DNA of 64,000 nt from an uncultured delta proteobacterium (GTDB taxonomy: Bacteria; Desulfobacterota; BSN033; UBA1163), in assembly GCA_963827685.1 (NCBI GenBank), contig CAWHBU010000006.1, positions 448,001 through 512,000 on the forward strand. The letters run 5' to 3'. The position numbers and the translations under genes were made by a program. How positions within the stretch are numbered: position 1 is the first letter of the stretch; each line of letters opens with the position of its first letter. The notes beneath the pieces were generated by a model. That model saw only the letters and a list, made by a program, of their open reading frames with translations, made no database searches and had not been told where the DNA came from. Of the stretch, positions 40,901-46,395 are shown piece by piece.

Positions 40901-41941
40901 TCAGAGAATTCGAATTCTTCCGCGAGGCTCTTCCACCACTTCCCCTACGATGTTGGAATGAATGAGCCCTTCTTTCTTTAGGGTCACCACCAGTTTGTCT
41001 GCCTTGTTGGAGGGCAAAGAAATTAAGAGCCCGCCAGAGGTTTGGGGATCATAAAAAATATTGACCAATAGATCGGGTACGTCGGGTTGAACTTCCACAC
41101 GGCAGGAGAAAAAATCTCGATTTGAATAAGCCCCCCCAGGGATTAATCCCAATTTCGCATATTCTACGGCTTCAGGGAAGATTGGAACAGCTTTTGATTG
41201 AATGACCATTCCCACCTGGCTTGCGACCGCCATTTCTAATGCATGGCCGATGAAACTGAAGCCTGTGATATCCGTACAGGCATGGGCCCCAAATTTTATC
41301 ATCCATTCCGACGTTGTTCGATTAAGGGTCACCATGCTCTCCACGATCTTCCGGACAGCCTCCTCCGAAGCCATTTCACCCTTAAGGGCTGTGGCAATAA
41401 TCCCTGTGCCAAGAGGTTTCGTCAAAACCAACTTGTCCCCTACCTTCGCTTTCGCATTGGTCAGGATTTTTTTGGGATGCACCACCCCTGTTACAGCCAG
41501 GCCATATTTAATCTCCGGGTCCTCGATCGAATGCCCTCCCACCAGAGCCACACCAGCCTCCTCCATCTTCGAAAGCCCTCCGAGAAGGATTTCTTTCAAA
41601 ATAGAAGAAGAGAGGTCTTTGATGGGAAAGGCCACTAAATTCATGCCTGTGAGGGGAGTCCCTCCCATGGCATAGACGTCACTCAGAGCATTGGCCACAG
41701 CGATCTGGCCAAAAGTAAAAGGATCGTCCACGATCGGGGTGAAGAAGTCTACCGTCTGAACCAGGGCGACCTCGTCACTTAATTGATAGACCCCTGCATC
41801 ATCCGATGTCTCCAGTCCAACCAGAACCTTCGGATTTTTTGGAAGCGGCAATCCTTTAAGAATTTGATCCAGATCCTCTGGACCCACTTTAGAGGCTCAA
41901 CCCGCTTTTTTGACTTTCGAAGTCAGACGCACTTTCTCCAT
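40901..41941 (-). CDS. selD: Selenide, water dikinase (selenoprotein form, Sec at codon 15)
   Basis: MEKVRLTSKVKKAG-UGA(41897-41899)-ASKVGPEDL; DDAGV, TVDFFTP, DVYAMGG, DPQTSGGLL. Confidence 0.93.
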
Positions 41942-41962
41942 TTCTCTCTCCGTCCTTTGAAA

Positions 41963-42220
41963 TTAGGTCAGAATTTCCTTCTTTTTCTCAAACCTTCCCC
42001 TTGAATCCTTTGTATAACATTCGGTCATCGATATCTTATTCTCCCTGAGGATAAGCAACGCTTTTTCTTCTGATTCTCCTGAGAGTTCGACCGCTACTCC
42101 GCAATCGGAACTAATATCCCTCGGCACTGGGATGAGGTCAACTTCTATTCCTTTTTCCTTAAGAAGTTTTTCAGTCCTCATCACCTGATGGACGGACGAA
42201 AAGAGGAGTACGCATTTCAT
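41963..42220 (-). CDS. DUF3343-like putative Se/S carrier protein
   Basis: LIPVPRDISSDCG. Confidence 0.85.
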   Translation of the reverse strand: MKCVLLFSSVHQVMRTEKLLKEKGIEVDLIPVPRDISSDCGVAVELSGESEEKALLILRENKISMTECYTKDSRGRFEKKKEILT

Positions 42221-42813
42221 GGACGGATCAGATGATCTGCTTCCAAAAGAGACTGAGCAATATCATACATATTGGAAACAGTTCCTACTCTCAATTTCTC
42301 CTTTAATCCATAGAAATCGAGGCATGTTCCGCAGGCCAGGATCTCTACCCCCTCTTCGGATAATTTCTTGAGAGTCTCCAAGACCTCAGAACCCTCCGAA
42401 GCCAATCGAACTCCTGAATTAATCAAAATCAATCGAGAGGGTTTTTTCTCTAGATCCATTAGGGTCTTCAAAAAAGACCTCATCAGGATCGCTCCCAATG
42501 ACTCATCCCCAACACCCAGGAGATGGGAATTAATATAAACGACAACCTTTTTGATTTTCTCGTTAGGCTGGGTCACTTTCTCTCTATCCTCACTACTGGT
42601 CTTTCGAATGCGAAGATAAAAATCCTGCCCTTCCTGCTTAATTTCCACCGGACATCCTTGACTCTGAACGAACCGTTCCACATTATTACAGGAGGAAGCA
42701 TTGTCCACAATGACGATCATCTCTCCTTCCTTCAGCTGATCTAATGCCTGTTTTGTTGTCACGACAGGTTGGGGACAGGCAAGACCTCGACAGTCAATCA
42801 CCGGCATTTCCAT
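42217..42813 (-). CDS. yedF: Selenium metabolism protein YedF (TusA + DsrE-like domains)
   Basis: DCRGLACPQPV; LGAILMRSFL, CGTCLDFY, SNMYDI. Confidence 0.88.
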   Translation of the reverse strand: MEMPVIDCRGLACPQPVVTTKQALDQLKEGEMIVIVDNASSCNNVERFVQSQGCPVEIKQEGQDFYLRIRKTSSEDREKVTQPNEKIKKVVVYINSHLLGVGDESLGAILMRSFLKTLMDLEKKPSRLILINSGVRLASEGSEVLETLKKLSEEGVEILACGTCLDFYGLKEKLRVGTVSNMYDIAQSLLEADHLIRP

Positions 42814-42960
42814 TTCCTCCGATTCATTTTAAGGGATTGAGAAAGAACTACGGATATTATTCTACCACATATTTCCTTTTCTTTTCATAGATATTCCAGG
42901 CAGCTCTCAAAACTCAAAAGACTACCCGACACTTGTTCAAGACCAAGAAAGAAGAGCGCA

Positions 42961-44115
42961 TCACCTTTCCTGTTTGGAAATCTGGGAGACGGTTCGGATC
43001 GCGGCCTCGATGTCTGCTTCGTTGTTGAAAGCACTCAAGCCAAATCGGACTGTTCCCTCTGGGAATGTCCCGATGGTGCGATGGGCTGCGGGCGCACAGT
43101 GAAGTCCTGAACGGCAGAGGACACCGAATTCCTTTTCTAAGCGGTGGGCCACATCTGAAGGAGAAAGTTGTTCAATATTGAAAGAAAGAGTGGCAATTTG
43201 ATTTTTCTGGATTTGTGGCCCATAGCGTTTCACCCGAGAAATCTTTTTCAACCCCTCGATGAGCTTTTCAGTTAGAGTGATTTCATTTTGCCGGATCTGT
43301 TCCACTCCTTTTTCCAGGACAAATCGAATCCCGGCGAGAAGCCCGGCAATGCCAACGCCATTTGGGGTTCCGCTTTCAAAGCGGTCCGGCAAGAAGTCCG
43401 GCTGTTCCTCAAATTCTGATCGACTTCCTGTCCCACCTTGTTTTAACGGAATCATTTCCTTTTCATCTATCCGTTCACCAATAACAAGCCCCCCAGTCCC
43501 CTGGGGCCCATAAAGGCTCTTATGTCCAGTAAAAGCTAAGAGATCAATCCCATCTCTTTCAACATCAATCGGATAAGCTCCGGCCGTCTGCGCAGCATCG
43601 ACCAAAAAGAGAAGATTGTGTGCCCTTGCGATCTCCCCAACTGCGATGATTGGAAGAAGTGTTCCTGTGACATTCGAGGCATGATTGAGAACTACCATTT
43701 TTGTATTCGATTGAATCCTTCTTTCCACTTCTCCTGCGTCCAGCATACCTTCTTTGGAACAGGGAATGACGCTCAATTCGATTCCCTTCTTCTCCAGATC
43801 CCTGAGAGGCCTCATCACCGAATTGTGTTCCATGCTGCTCGTAATGACATGGTCTTTAGGTTTTAATAAACCATTTAGGGCTAAATTGATGGATTCGGTA
43901 GCATTGAGTGTGAAGACGATTCTTGATGAATCTTTGACATGGAACAGAACCGAAAGAGCCTCTCTGGTCTCATAGATAATCCTTGCGGCTTCAATCGAGA
44001 GGAAGTGTCCAGATCGGCCTGGGTTGGCCCCGACCTCCTCCATAAATTTGTTCATCGCCTCTTTCACTTGAGGAGGCTTCGGCCATGAAGTGGCTGGATT
44101 ATCGAGGTAGATCAT
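42961..44115 (-). CDS. Cysteine desulfurase / selenocysteine lyase-like class V aminotransferase
   Basis: YLDN.ATS, EHNSV, DAAQTAG, TGHKSL.GP.G.G, RSGLHCAP. Confidence 0.9.
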   Translation of the reverse strand: MIYLDNPATSWPKPPQVKEAMNKFMEEVGANPGRSGHFLSIEAARIIYETREALSVLFHVKDSSRIVFTLNATESINLALNGLLKPKDHVITSSMEHNSVMRPLRDLEKKGIELSVIPCSKEGMLDAGEVERRIQSNTKMVVLNHASNVTGTLLPIIAVGEIARAHNLLFLVDAAQTAGAYPIDVERDGIDLLAFTGHKSLYGPQGTGGLVIGERIDEKEMIPLKQGGTGSRSEFEEQPDFLPDRFESGTPNGVGIAGLLAGIRFVLEKGVEQIRQNEITLTEKLIEGLKKISRVKRYGPQIQKNQIATLSFNIEQLSPSDVAHRLEKEFGVLCRSGLHCAPAAHRTIGTFPEGTVRFGLSAFNNEADIEAAIRTVSQISKQER

Positions 44116-44119
44116 TTCT

Positions 44120-44341
44120 TCAATCCTTTTTTAAAACAAGACGGTAACCTTCTTGAACCCTCTCAATTTCCACACTCCACCCTGATTGTTGAGCTAAGCG
44201 AGAAACATTCTCTTTGGAAGTGTCCGTATCTACGAGGATGATAATTTCTCCCTTGTTGATCTTTTTTGTCTCACTCAGAGCCAGCATCACAGGTTGAGGG
44301 CACGAAAGCCCACGGGCATCAACGATCTTACTCATCTTCAT
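44120..44341 (-). CDS. TusA/SirA family sulfurtransferase
   Basis: VDARGLSCPQPV. Confidence 0.88.
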   Translation of the reverse strand: MKMSKIVDARGLSCPQPVMLALSETKKINKGEIIILVDTDTSKENVSRLAQQSGWSVEIERVQEGYRLVLKKD

Positions 44342-44350
44342 CCCTCCTTT

Positions 44351-45445
44351 TTAAGCGACTTCTTTTCGCATTGTGAAGCCGATAAACAGACATGTGAGAA
44401 GTCCAATGATCACAGCGGCGACGCCATAGGATCCAACTCCGTCTGGAGAACTGGCCAGGCCAAAGTTATGTGCAAAACCGGCTCCGACGATCATCCCCAG
44501 GACAAAAACCGCTGCATCCCCATCGCCCTCCCCGGCAAGGAAGAGCTGTCTTCCCGGACAACCCCCGGCCAGGGCAAAGGCTAACCCTGCCAAGACCATG
44601 CCGCCGAAGTTCCAAAGGCTCATTGTGTGAGCCACGGGTTGCTTGACAAAACCGGGATGAAACTGTCCCAGAATCAAGTTCACAATAAAAGCAACAACCA
44701 CGAGAGCCATCGCTCCTGAGAGGAGATGGTTCTGTCTAAAAAGGACGAAATCCCGGATGGCCCCCATGGTGCAGAACCGACTTCTCTGCGCCAGAAATCC
44801 GATGCAGAGGCCAATCACCAGCGACACAAAAAGCGGTGCGTGCATGGACCCGGGGCCTTTCAGGCTGTAGAACAAGACTCCGCTTTTATCCTGGGCCTCA
44901 ACCTGGGGAAAGATGAACATCAGAACAAGAAACCCAAGCATGACTAAAGGCAATAACCATCCAACCGAGGTATGAGTGGTTTGAGAACGCCCCAGGTTGT
45001 AACCGCCTTTCAAAAAGAGTGTGCCAACCCATATTCCTCCGATGAGTCCGAGCAACCCGAAAATGGCATTCCCATCACCACCGGCCAAACGGAGCATAGC
45101 TCGCCAGGGGCACCCCAAAAACACCAGGGCTCCGATCATAGCAAAAGCCCCAAGGACAAATCGAACAATGGGAGCAGAGCCAGCCCGTGACCGGAATTCC
45201 TTGAACACATAGGCGGCAATCAGTGAGCCAAGGACAAAGCCGATGATTTCGGGCCGAATATATTGAACAACAGCGGCCCGATGAAGCCCCAGGGCGCCCG
45301 CAATGTCCCTCTCGAAACAGGCCACGCAGATGCCCATGTTCGCCGGGTTTCCCCACTTCTGCAAAAGCGGGGCAAAGACCCCGATAAAAGCCCCTACTGA
45401 AATGATTCCCCAACGAGTCGCAAAAATGTTCTTAATGGTGGTCAT
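44351..45445 (-). CDS. yedE: YedE family putative selenium transporter
   Basis: GNPANMGICVACFERDIAGALG, FLGCP, RSRFC, LAGGCP. Confidence 0.9.
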   Translation of the reverse strand: MTTIKNIFATRWGIISVGAFIGVFAPLLQKWGNPANMGICVACFERDIAGALGLHRAAVVQYIRPEIIGFVLGSLIAAYVFKEFRSRAGSAPIVRFVLGAFAMIGALVFLGCPWRAMLRLAGGDGNAIFGLLGLIGGIWVGTLFLKGGYNLGRSQTTHTSVGWLLPLVMLGFLVLMFIFPQVEAQDKSGVLFYSLKGPGSMHAPLFVSLVIGLCIGFLAQRSRFCTMGAIRDFVLFRQNHLLSGAMALVVVAFIVNLILGQFHPGFVKQPVAHTMSLWNFGGMVLAGLAFALAGGCPGRQLFLAGEGDGDAAVFVLGMIVGAGFAHNFGLASSPDGVGSYGVAAVIIGLLTCLFIGFTMRKEVA

Positions 45446-45534
45446 AGTTACCCTCCTTTCCAAAAAATTGGTTTTGGATCATAGCCAACTCTTAATAGAT
45501 AATGGTCAGGAGGGAGGGAAAAGGTGTGAAGAAC

Positions 45535-45688
45535 TCAGGGCACAAGAGGATAGAAATAAGTTAGGAGCATCCCTTTTCTCTCTCTCCTTCTATTGAACCG
45601 GAGACCTAACCTAGGTCTCTTTAGGCCAGATACGGCCCCTCATCTGAGAGAAAAGGGCGTTTGGGATTTTCCCACGTTGAGGCCTCCT
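45535..45688 (-). promoter_or_regulatory. Putative leader ORF with in-frame UGA and SECIS-like hairpin upstream of the selenium operon
   Basis: AGGAGG (45683-45688), GTG 45675, UGA 45640-45642, hairpin 45601-45619, next stop 45535-45537. Confidence 0.55.
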
Positions 45689-45868
45689 ACCGCTTCTTGA
45701 GAAAATTATTAAAAACAGTTAACTGGAAAATTGAGATATGTCAAATCGGAATTTTCGATAATGAGAATGATAATTATTGGAAATTCCAATTAAAAACTTC
45801 ACAACCCTTCTTCACCTTTCTATTTTCTTTTTGGTTGCTTTGCCAGGACAAAATTGATATAAATTTGA

Positions 45869-45933
45869 ATACCGGGATAATGGAATGTTGGAATGCTGGA
45901 CACCGTTTATTCCATTCTTCCACCATTCCAATA
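45869..45933. repeat. Inverted octamer-repeat hairpin
   Basis: gataatggaatgttggaatgctgga ... ttccattcttccaccattccaata. Confidence 0.75.
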
Positions 45934-45957
45934 ATAATCTTTTGAGGGAGGTGGGGT

Positions 45958-46395
45958 ATGTACAAAAAAATCTTAGTCCCGTTGGATGGATCAGAATTGG
46001 CAAAAATGGCCTTGGACGAGGCTGAAAAAATGGCTAAGGCCTTTGATGCTGAAATCATTCTTTTCCAAGTGGTCCCCTTTATGCCCATATATGGTTCACC
46101 AGAGCTGGTTACCCCTCTGATCGTCGACGAAAAACAGAAGGAAGCCGCCGAGAAATATCTTGCGAACCTCTGCGAGGAATTGAGAAAGAGAGGTCTTGGG
46201 GCAGCGGCGATGGTGAGGACCGGGCAGCAGGTGGCCGTCGAGATCATTGACTTTGCCAAAGAGGCCGGGGCGGATCTAATCATCATGTGTACTCATGGCC
46301 GGTCCGGAATTTCGAGGTGGGTGATGGGGAGTGTCGCCCTTAAAGTCGTAACCCGGGCTGAAACGCCCATCCTTCTCATCCGGTCAAAAAGATAA
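45958..46395 (+). CDS. Universal stress protein
   Basis: YKKILVPLDGS, DLIIMCTHGRSG..RWVMGSVA. Confidence 0.93.
   Translation: MYKKILVPLDGSELAKMALDEAEKMAKAFDAEIILFQVVPFMPIYGSPELVTPLIVDEKQKEAAEKYLANLCEELRKRGLGAAAMVRTGQQVAVEIIDFAKEAGADLIIMCTHGRSGISRWVMGSVALKVVTRAETPILLIRSKR

Follow-up and report, generated by a model that had tools for sequence, protein, structure and literature searches.

A conserved leader with a short reading frame, an in-frame UGA and a SECIS-like hairpin: a candidate selenocysteine-sensing attenuator of selenium genes in Desulfobacterota

How bacteria sense selenium is largely unknown, and the known case at the RNA level is the SECIS-like operator of Escherichia coli selAB. 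Ribosomes held on a leader reading frame remodel the downstream RNA in TnaC (with a UGA stop and Rho), in ermC and in Salmonella mgtL/mgtA, and this remodelling exposes or hides a ribosome binding site (RBS) or a Rho loading site. In the available portion of a preprint (bioRxiv 10.64898/2026.03.03.709296) the E. coli selAB hairpin lies 3 nt from the SD sequence of selA and works purely through binding, and neither a uORF nor a UGA appears there. The available part of a study on Treponema primitia describes selenium control of fdhF(Sec) by translation–transcription coupling (PMC3892789). The mRNA of yedE rises 5.3 log2-fold under selenium starvation in Methanococcus maripaludis according to the accessible text of PMC11097638, and that of PMC5322559 calls the bacterial selenium regulatory network not clear and proposes a LysR-type factor alone. 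For Syntrophus aciditrophicus 19 selenoproteins have been listed (PMC1794560).

Here we describe the 5′ leader, about 240 nt long, of a selenium uptake and utilisation operon in an uncultured delta proteobacterium, a leader that probably lets the cell gauge its selenocysteine (Sec) supply by the way in which a ribosome reads a UGA codon, as its uORF, UGA and hairpin suggest. The window, that is the whole stretch of DNA analysed, comprises 64,000 nt, and all features below are on its minus strand. By Pfam the operon (40901–45445) consists of yedE (44351–45445), tusA (44120–44341), csd coding for a class-V aminotransferase resembling Sec lyases (Aminotran_5, 42961–44115), yedF (TusA+DsrE, 42217–42813), the Se/S carrier gene (Se_S_carrier, DUF3343, 41963–42220) and selD (40901–41941), which is the gene order given in an earlier note made from the sequence without database searches. 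The selD gene has a Sec codon of its own (41899–41897), for which read-through and a SECIS were shown.

The operon promoter is likely formed by a −35-like TTGACA (45739–45744), invariant in 15 of 15 aligned leaders, and a −10-like TAACTG 17 nt downstream. A consensus scan called neither a promoter nor a terminator on the minus strand; it missed the promoter because position 6 of the −10 box is a G, and with no call from the scan we infer the promoter from conservation only. Abutting the −35 box is an imperfect palindrome, ATCGAAAATTCCGAT (45745–45759), which is conserved in the 15-sequence alignment, is perfect in one relative (ATCGGAA-A-TTCCGAT) and probably serves a transcription factor as its operator. 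In relatives the same operator and −35 box precede other genes of selenium and sulfur trafficking. The source genome has one real operator site, at yedE; five other matches to the motif with up to four mismatches were judged to be chance. Further upstream, a 170-aa minus-strand ORF (45774–46286) without Pfam or NCBIfam family was rejected as a gene since its conservation is that of the Usp gene on the opposite strand.

The earlier note had proposed an attenuator in this leader, and the elements it listed are present as it described them. An SD sequence AGGAGG (45683–45688) is followed after a 7-nt spacer by a GTG start (45675–45673) and a uORF of 11 sense codons, MGKSQTPFSLR (45643–45675), which ends at the in-frame UGA (45640–45642), the proposed Sec and sensor codon, invariant among homologues. 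Codons 7–10 form segment 1, CCCUUUUCUCUC (45646–45657), which is the 5′ strand of helix P1 and lies within the footprint of a ribosome with the UGA in its A site. Directly 3′ of the UGA, starting 4 nt on, is a hairpin absent from the earlier list, P2 (GGGCC-GUAUCU-GGCCU, 45623–45638), and then follows P3, the SECIS-like hairpin GAGACCUA-GGU-UAGGUCUC (45601–45619) with a perfect 8-bp stem and a GGU triloop whose first G (45611) is 28 nt past the UGA. The polypurine tract GAAGGAGAGAGAGAAAAGGG (45571–45590) is segment 2; it serves P1 as the 3′ strand and can alternatively pair, as the 5′ strand, with segment 3; its core GAGAGAAAAGGG (45571–45582) is the exact complement of segment 1, to which it is paired by both RNAfold and RNAalifold. 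If the UGA were read as Sec, translation would end at a TGA (45535–45537), where the note had put the read-through stop, and yield a product of 46 residues. Segment 3, the CU-rich tract CCUUUUCCCUCCCUCC (45509–45524), pairs with segment 2 at 14 of 16 positions as the note had counted; it belongs to a C-rich, G-poor stretch, is followed by UGACCAUUAUCUAUUA, and contains the anti-SD sequence CCCUCC, which in the MFE fold is indeed paired with the SD sequence GGAGGG of yedE (45451–45456). About 145 nt separate P3 from this SD sequence.

Homologues of the leader were found with a covariance model (R1), which matched 18 of the 55 genomes of the source genome's family and none of 13 from the two remaining families of its class. 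In a sample of 150 more genomes from across the phylum it matched 3, which all belong to one other family; in the order of that second family 13 of 17 genomes had together 15 matches. The model also matched 67 of 67 metagenome contigs, which had been chosen by a pattern. A pattern scan of genome contigs gave 65 loci, of which the covariance model accepted 10 as real, all from species already in the comparison set; the other 55, in unrelated taxa, were chance. The gene downstream of the leader is yedE in about 49 of 59 classifiable cases; in other cases it is tusA, yedF, csd or a rhodanese gene, and the leader is thus not confined to yedE. SelB is encoded in 51 of the 55 family genomes, too many for its presence alongside the leader to be informative, and one of the genomes with the leader, G064 (79% complete), lacks a SelB match. 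A search of Rfam 15 on the minus strand at E ≤ 10 gave no match extending over more than the leader edge, the nearest being SMAD5-AS1_3 (E-value 9.2, 45585–45721); plus-strand miRNA matches were set aside as a mere reflection of the inverted repeat of segments 2 and 3. The Rfam family SECIS_3 matches only the FdhA-type SECIS elements of the source genome and not the leader, and since it is confined to this type its silence on the leader is uninformative. The earlier note had staked its proposal on conservation in orthologous leaders: the uORF, the UGA and the hairpin are kept in two clades and in metagenomes. Conservation and covariation across 89 distinct homologues (74 and 15 from the second clade) settle at the sequence level that the leader is conserved and not a chance arrangement, with the proviso that the homologues are related by descent and the counts therefore overstate independent support.

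The reading frames of the homologues carry much of the argument. An SD-preceded, in-frame ATG, GTG or TTG lies 11–12 codons before the UGA in 72 of 73 distinct sequences with a complete 5′ end and in 14 of 15 sequences of the second clade, and the tract 5′ of the start is purine-rich and SD-like in homologues too. The start codons interchange (ATG 45, GTG 25, TTG 1), and codons 2–6 vary without indels. UGA is found in 74 of 74 distinct sequences, never TAA or TAG, and is preceded by a codon that occurs in 12 forms. After the UGA, frame 0 is free of stops up to the end of segment 2 in 69 of 69 sequences (13 of 14 in the second clade), whereas the same interval holds stops in frames 1 and 2 in 69 and 65 of 69 (14 and 12 of 14). 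Between segments 2 and 3 a frame-0 stop is present in 64 of 69 sequences (14 of 14), compared with 31 and 12 of 69 for the other frames (6 and 5 of 14). This second stop varies in position and among TGA, TAA and TAG, giving the column pattern T-R-A. Judged by these patterns, the frame behind the UGA behaves like a translated frame. Two exceptions are L225 (f39), in which the UGA is out of frame, the loop is UGU and frame 0 closes early, and L036, with one additional nucleotide and a uORF that ends at UAG.

A selenoprotein gene, too, would show a UGA within an open frame, a SECIS-like hairpin and a stop that is preserved, and the 46-residue, Arg-rich Sec peptide could be functional itself, with the hairpins being merely its SECIS. 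We consider this very improbable, as the covariation of the hairpins alters the encoded residues (PRLGL, LRLSL, PGSGL) and the N- and C-termini vary in sequence and length, the part after the UGA ranging from 27 to 51 codons across homologues. Moreover, the read-through peptide matches no NCBIfam family, no Cys form (TGC or TGT at the UGA position) occurs among the 74 and 15 sequences, and P1, segment 3 and their covariation would have no role in such a gene. The reading that we favour, and hold to be rather likely from the comparison of the leaders, is that of a translated regulatory leader which senses the capacity for Sec decoding, that is Sec-tRNA(Sec) with SelB.

The source genome encodes tRNA-Sec and SelB, and its own selenoprotein genes allow a direct comparison of P3 with genuine SECIS elements. 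In bSECISearch the apical loop is reportedly expected 16–37 nt past the UGA. The leader shows an in-frame UGA in a continuing ORF, a loop distance of 28 nt and a loop sequence as in a bacterial SECIS. The seven genuine elements of the genome (FdhA, a Mo-enzyme, three FlpD, SelD and Grx) have stems of 5–9 bp and GGC, GGG, GGA or GUU triloops 19–27 nt past the UGA. The P3 loop is GGU in 70 of 74 sequences and otherwise GGC, GGG, GGA or GUU, the same loops as in the genuine elements. The leader thus has the same form as the SECIS of SelD, FlpD, FdhA and Grx, an in-frame UGA and then a stem with a G-led apical triloop 19–28 nt on, but differs from the seven elements by the additional hairpin P2 between the UGA and the SECIS-like stem, by a spacing of 28 nt that is just outside their range, and by a product without a recognisable protein family. 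Both strands of the 5.2-Mb genome were scanned for an SD sequence with start, 6–22 codons, a TGA and a GGN or GUU triloop 15–32 nt on. A stem of at least 6 bp was present at 19 sites and one of 8 bp at only three, namely SelD, the UPYC glutaredoxin (both real selenoprotein genes) and the yedE leader. P3 resembles the SECIS elements of its own genome in form and spacing, and binding of SelB is predicted; the conserved loop might just as well make a tertiary contact or be the site of another protein.

The helices are supported by compensatory changes at 5 of 12 pairs in P1, 6 of 6 in P2 and 5 of 8 in P3 (33-genome alignment; alignment A4 was fitted to the structure of the covariance model). The observed covariation score was reached by 0 of 500 shuffles, and 92.5% of the cells pair, compared with 47–63% when the partner is slid; the P2 loop is free to vary and occurs in 20 different sequences. 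The helix of segments 2 and 3 covaries at 9 of 12 pairs in the second clade (0 of 500 shuffles score as high), in a structure derived from the same alignment on which it was tested; in the source family it is conserved, and no covariation beyond controls was found there or in the metagenomes. P1 and the helix of segments 2 and 3 share the polypurine strand and are mutually exclusive, so that the two helices proposed as alternatives in the earlier note stand as such, each with compensatory changes. Duplex energies are −21.5 kcal/mol for 1:2, −22.4 kcal/mol for 2:3 and −14.9 kcal/mol for segment 3 with the yedE SD sequence, and the nascent RNA with segment 1 masked folds into 2:3. The folding energy of the single sequence is unremarkable (z = −0.80; 48 of 200 shuffles fold as well).

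A three-way junction of P1, P2 and P3, its helices conserved and its P3 loop strictly so, might also work without Sec decoding. The UGA would then be an ordinary stop, and SelB-GTP-Sec-tRNA(Sec) bound at P3 or a small selenium metabolite would stabilise the junction and bring about the off state. The untranslated RNA is already in the fold with P1 formed and the RBS masked, and a precedent is the selAB 5′UTR, where, as far as the available part of the preprint relates, a SECIS-like hairpin represses translation once the SelB complex has bound to it (bioRxiv 10.64898/2026.03.03.709296, its reference 70). Nevertheless, we regard such a leader as unlikely. It leaves unexplained why, in contrast to the other frames, 82 of 83 sequences keep this frame open to the end of segment 2 and 78 of 83 close it before segment 3, why TAA and TAG are absent at the UGA position, and why the start codon is held 11–12 codons upstream; in addition, the junction strand J3/1 is conserved only moderately and there is no match to an Rfam family.

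According to the earlier note a ribosome masking segment 1 would free the yedE RBS, but in equilibrium folding of 47 leaders the mean probability of the RBS being unpaired hardly moves: it is 0.28 in the free RNA, 0.32 with a ribosome at the UGA, 0.27 with a ribosome on segment 2 and 0.30 with one at the second stop. The proposed attenuator is thus borne out in the conservation of its uORF, UGA and hairpin and in the covariation of 1:2 and 2:3, but not in the release of the RBS at equilibrium, and given this near-constant accessibility the model needs kinetic, co-transcriptional folding. In some relatives (G013, G023, G031, G022, G073 and some metagenome leaders) about 110–200 nt lie between segment 3 and the RBS; the insert is a dispersed repeat in G031, G022 and G073, those checked, and the inserted element of the relatives has no match in Rfam. 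Because this repeat parts segment 3 from the RBS, masking of the RBS by segment 3 may not be the output or may be one of several. Terminator-like sites are absent between 45300 and 46000, and no U-run follows segment 3. The 80 nt after segment 2 contain 34% C and 9% G in the source genome, a bias matched in 481 of 200,000 windows drawn at random from the genome, and 32% C and 9.6% G in 71 leaders. A C-rich, G-poor tract past the leader ORF together with the Rho gene, which is present, makes this a candidate Rho-dependent leader, and in our model the output step could be RBS masking or Rho. Among 21 sequencing runs one was of RNA; its contigs lie on the yedE coding sequence of relatives only, none on the leader.

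Under the reading of a Sec-sensing leader, the control would proceed as follows. When Sec-tRNA(Sec) is scarce, the ribosome would wait at the UGA and cover segment 1, and segment 2 would pair with segment 3 as the latter is transcribed. We propose that this helix ties up the anti-SD, C-rich tract and that yedE to selD are consequently expressed. When Sec-tRNA(Sec) is plentiful, SelB bound to P3 would deliver Sec at the UGA, and the ribosome would read through, cross P2, P3 and segment 2 and halt just before segment 3. Behind it P1 would re-form and segment 3 would stay single-stranded, to mask the yedE RBS or act as a Rho loading site, or both, and the operon would be turned down. An untranslated leader would take the P1 fold and be off. 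The transcription factor operator at the promoter would add a second layer of control.

Relatives carry a second, unrelated leader behind the same operator. It has an 11-codon uORF with TGA in 12 of 13 cases, a hairpin with GGU or GUU in its loop about 21 nt past the UGA, and an open read-through frame. The parts common to the two architectures are the 11-codon uORF, the UGA and the SECIS-like hairpin with a GGU loop. Class I leaders stand before yedE, tusA, yedF, csd and rhodanese genes, Class II leaders before tusA and genes of the HGD-D family.

The peptides of both leaders invite a further explanation, in which the nascent chain xxxxxxP[F/L]SLx and the UGA would bring about an RF2-dependent termination pause as in TnaC; the pause would track a signal other than Sec, or translation capacity, and flip P1 against the helix of segments 2 and 3. 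In its favour are the conservation of the UGA and of a P-F/L-S-L motif, the Y/F-R-P-UGA ending of the second leader class, which we take to resemble the Pro-UGA end of TnaC, and the C-rich, G-poor tract after segment 2, which together with Rho would fit a TnaC-like control by Rho. However, the PFSL codons double as a strand of P1, so that conservation of the peptide is inseparable from conservation of the RNA. Such a pause explains neither the constraints on the downstream frame nor the presence, in both of the unrelated leaders, of a SECIS-like hairpin at SECIS spacing, and every regulated gene belongs to selenium or sulfur trafficking. We find this explanation quite improbable, less credible still than a leader that binds SelB or a ligand.

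Taking the two leaders together under the Sec-sensing reading, we see slightly better than even chances that some Desulfobacterota sense their selenium status directly, through how efficiently UGA is recoded to Sec on dedicated leader peptides, with at least two unrelated architectures under one operator and in one selenium regulon. If true, it would be the first natural attenuator to sense the 21st amino acid, with the complex of SelB, Sec-tRNA(Sec) and SECIS as its input, and would extend ribosome-mediated attenuation to a recoded stop codon. It would provide a direct, testable sensor for selenium homeostasis, explain how YedE and SelD are tuned in selenoprotein-rich anaerobes, and, at about 200 nt, supply a small natural module for reporters that respond to selenium. 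It would also flag a co-regulated set for selenium trafficking: YedE, TusA/YedF, a periplasmic rhodanese, a Csd-type lyase and a protein of the HGD-D family.

The leader would extend the known kinds of ribosome-mediated control, and no description of such a leader was found in print. With the trp, his, leu and thr attenuators it shares a short, SD-preceded leader ORF containing the codon of the sensed amino acid, here in an 11-codon ORF, and exclusive 1:2 and 2:3 helices that share a strand, between which the position of the ribosome is proposed to select here too, with the untranslated leader in the off fold. Whereas these attenuators use tandem sense codons and EF-Tu, the present leader has a single UGA, predicted to need SelB and the SECIS-like hairpin, and the proposed choice is between pausing or termination and recoding. 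The intrinsic 3:4 terminator of the trp type, a GC stem with a U-run, is not found; the third element is an anti-SD, C-rich tract instead.

The E. coli selAB 5′UTR likewise has a SECIS-type hairpin in the leader of a selenium pathway and feedback by SelB-Sec-tRNA(Sec), which is proposed here. In contrast to the selAB operator, as far as it is described in the available part of its source, P3 is about 145 nt away from the yedE SD sequence and follows the UGA of a uORF whose read-through frame is kept open. In Treponema primitia fdhF(Sec), too, selenium decides on the passage of the UGA and hence on the downstream RNA, as we propose for this leader. There, by the accessible account, UGA and SECIS are within the coding sequence of the enzyme itself, whereas here a dedicated 11-codon leader with alternative helices is used and the controlled genes mostly lack a Sec codon near their start. 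RBS unmasking of the ermC type would agree with the pairing of segment 3 and the yedE SD sequence in the MFE fold, but masking of segment 1 moves the unpaired probability only from 0.28 to 0.32 and a repeat intervenes in some relatives. Finally, the stalling leaders of the TnaC, ermC and mgtL kinds respond to small molecules in the exit tunnel, to antibiotics or to the supply of proline-tRNA, whereas the trigger that we propose for the present leader is a recoding complex at a stop codon.

The leader proposed in the earlier note could be confirmed, and all of its elements lie on the minus strand 5′ of yedE. An SD motif AGGAGG (45688–45683) is followed after a 7-nt spacer by a GTG start codon (45675) and ten further codons giving the peptide MGKSQTPFSLR, and this upstream open reading frame (uORF) ends at an in-frame TGA (45642–45640). 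Directly 3′ of the UGA lies a hairpin, P2 (45638–45623), which was absent from the earlier description, and then the perfect 8-bp hairpin P3 (45619–45601), whose GGU triloop begins 28 nt past the UGA. Segment 1 (45657–45646) is the exact complement of segment 2 (45582–45571), and segment 2 is also the partner of segment 3 (45524–45509), which pairs with it at 14 of 16 positions and contains the CCCUCC complementary to the yedE ribosome binding site (RBS, 45456–45451). The claimed read-through stop is likewise present in the UGA frame (frame 0) at 45537–45535. The single-sequence folding energy of the leader is unremarkable (z = −0.80) and in an Rfam search no family accounted for it. Sub-threshold miRNA-precursor readings on the plus strand (45503–45594 of the window, Rfam mir-9201, E = 0.009) were rejected, being the complement of the long inverted repeat of segments 2 and 3.

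By blastn the leader was found in 14 relatives at 70–91% identity. A covariance model built from the sequences so found detected it in 18 of the 55 genomes of the window's family; the other two families of the class, represented by 13 genomes, gave no match. When 151 genomes sampled from the phylum were scanned, the model matched the window's own genome and three genomes, all of one other family; in the order of that family (the second clade) 13 of 17 genomes were positive, with 15 matches. A pattern scan of genome contigs yielded 65 matches, only 10 of them real, with carriers annotated as Syntrophaceae, Deltaproteobacteria or Thermodesulfobacteriota MAGs. With a stricter pattern 67 metagenome contigs were picked, and the covariance model confirmed all 67. 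Two of these contigs carry two copies (L176, 10237–10433 and 11124–11322; L191, 3903–4097 and 6949–7142). Our working sets comprised 74 distinct sequences (A3) and 15 second-clade leaders. The uORF, the UGA and the hairpin, whose conservation in orthologous leaders the earlier note had proposed as a check, are kept in the window's family, in the second clade and in metagenomes.

On sequence grounds the uORF is genuine. In 72 of the 73 5′-complete sequences an ATG, GTG or TTG with an SD in front of it stands 11 codons (12 in three cases) before the UGA, and an SD-preceded start is found at the same distance in 14 of the 15 second-clade leaders. The start codons interchange (ATG 45, GTG 25, TTG 1), codons 2–6 diverge freely without indels (MGKSQT, MVELQK, MTEHST, MERLQI and others), and the UGA is kept in 74 of 74 sequences, preceded by a codon that has 12 forms. 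The exceptions to the uORF are L036, with one additional nucleotide and a frame ending at UAG, and L225, the sole second-clade leader with an out-of-frame UGA; in L225, moreover, the P3 loop is UGU and frame 0 is closed early by a stop. Translation appears to continue past the UGA. Among 69 sequences (five of the 74, incomplete or not parsed, were left out) the UGA frame never contains a stop before the end of segment 2, as opposed to 69/69 and 65/69 in frames 1 and 2, and between segments 2 and 3 a stop is present in this frame in 64/69 versus 31/69 and 12/69 in the others. The corresponding counts in the second clade are 1/14 versus 14/14 and 12/14 before the end of segment 2, and 14/14 versus 6/14 and 5/14 for a stop before segment 3. 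Because this second stop interchanges between TGA, TAA and TAG, a T-R-A conservation pattern results; its position also shifts (+81 to +153), and the first UGA never varies.

Covariation was found for both alternative structures. Among 33 genome-derived leaders, whose alignment was fitted to the covariance model, compensatory pairs occur in P1, the helix of segments 1 and 2 (5 of 12), in P2 (6 of 6) and in P3 (5 of 8); 92.5% of the cells pair versus 47–63% with slid partners, and none of 500 shuffles reached the score. In the second clade RNAalifold itself picked the helix of segments 2 and 3, in which 9 of 12 pairs covary and pairing amounts to 88.6% versus 59–73% with slid partners, the score again being reached by 0/500 shuffles. 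P1 is weaker there, with one strongly covarying pair (CG 6, UA 6), and in the window's own family the helix of segments 2 and 3 is 94% compatible and shows no covariation. Segment 1 lies within 15 nt 5′ of the UGA, the stretch expected beneath a ribosome whose A site holds the UGA.

The hairpin P3 looks like the SECIS elements of the organism itself. In the window's genome the hairpins of the Sec codons in FdhA, a second molybdoenzyme, three FlpD/MvhD, SelD and a glutaredoxin have stems of 5–9 bp and GGC, GGG, GGA or GUU triloops 19–27 nt past the UGA, compared with 8 bp and GGU at 28 nt in P3. The P3 loop is GGU in 70 of the 74 sequences and the four variants are GGC, GGG, GGA and GUU; in contrast, the P2 loop has 20 forms. 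Scanning this genome for an SD with a start codon, 6–22 codons, TGA and then a SECIS-type triloop gave 19 sites, and only SelD, the glutaredoxin and the leader have an 8-bp stem. The glutaredoxin (86 residues, G000:C2:983726–983986; L228 77–337, minus strand) has UPYC in place of CPYC, with Sec at codon 14 and a GUU triloop on its SECIS stem. Both tRNA-Sec and SelB are present. The operon downstream of the leader has the composition that had been claimed, as Pfam matched YedE, TusA, a class-V aminotransferase, YedF, a DUF3343 Se/S carrier and SelD. The selD gene (40901–41941, minus strand) is itself a selenoprotein gene, with an in-frame UGA as Sec codon (41899–41897) and a SECIS stem bearing a GGA triloop 20 nt past it; thus, the sensor would control an enzyme that needs Sec itself. 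Judged from these sequence patterns, Sec sensing is the best-supported reading of the leader.

The gene 3′ of the leader is YedE in ~49 of 59 classifiable cases, the remaining genes including TusA, a periplasmic rhodanese, a Fer4/CCG–VTT protein and a molybdoenzyme; in the second clade YedE, Csd and YedF are found. Of the two copies on L176, one stands before a periplasmic rhodanese gene; the gene after the other copy encodes a Fer4/CCG protein with a fused VTT (DedA-like) domain. In L135 and L153 the leader is followed by no more than a short fragment of the N-terminal part of yedE and, ~240 nt further, by a molybdopterin oxidoreductase gene, which looks like a rearranged locus with the leader retained.

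The promoter region contains a putative operator, the palindrome ATCGGAA-N-TTCCGAT with an adjoining −35 element TTGACA (45739–45764, minus strand). A 170-aa minus-strand ORF just 5′ of the promoter (45774–46286) was dismissed as an antisense artefact of the divergent gene for a universal stress protein (Usp, 45958–46395, plus strand, 145 aa). The window's genome has the operator only at the yedE promoter. In relatives (L016, L017, L020–L023, L030, L031) it precedes a TAT-signal DsrE-like gene, a periplasmic rhodanese and a different leader (class II), and in G035 it stands directly before yedE with no leader between. This recurrence before selenium/sulfur-trafficking genes suggests a transcription-factor regulon. 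The class II leaders (L202–L212, L143, L181; for example L202 ~1516–1850) are conserved, unrelated to the leader described above (class I), and occur in 10 of the 55 family genomes, the window's own not among them, upstream of HGD-D-family and TusA genes. They carry an 11-codon uORF ending with TGA in 12 of 13 cases; in the exception, L211, UGG replaces UGA and a continuous 50-codon frame results. A hairpin GCCCA-N6-UGGGC with GGU or GUU in its loop follows ~21 nt past the UGA, the pre-AUG sequence GUGAGAGCC pairs over a long range with a downstream GGCUCUCAU, and in 10 of 11 the read-through frame is open beyond the latter strand.

Release of the RBS upon stalling, as the earlier note had it, is a proposal only. 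The calculated duplex energies are −21.5 kcal/mol for segments 1 and 2, −22.4 for segments 2 and 3 and −14.9 for segment 3 with the RBS, and a nascent transcript without the RBS and with segment 1 masked is computed to fold segments 2 and 3 together; the equilibrium accessibility of the RBS hardly changes between four modelled states (0.28, 0.32, 0.27 and 0.30; 47 leaders). Several relatives have ~110–200 nt between segment 3 and the RBS, and the insert examined is a dispersed repeat that gave 15, 11 and 43 matches, one figure for each of three genomes, and has no family in Rfam. Such an insert is carried by L042 (1712–1872), L046, L048, L045, L038 and L161 and looks like a MITE/REP-like element. 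The 80 nt past segment 2 are on average 32% C and 9.6% G (71 leaders), the value of the window's genome being equalled by 481 of 200,000 random windows, and Rho is present in this genome. Given the flat accessibility, the insert, the C-rich tract and Rho, the output could possibly be RBS masking, Rho loading or both. The sign would be the same for either: a stall at the UGA would switch the operon on and read-through would switch it off.

This sign fits a report on Methanococcus maripaludis, in which selenium starvation raises yedE mRNA by 5.3 log2 (PMC11097638). A full-text literature search returned no described leader peptide or uORF carrying a Sec codon. The nearest items that it returned are the SECIS-like operator of selAB in E. 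coli (bioRxiv 10.64898/2026.03.03.709296) and, in Treponema primitia, a translational coupling within fdhF(Sec) that depends on selenium (PMC3892789).
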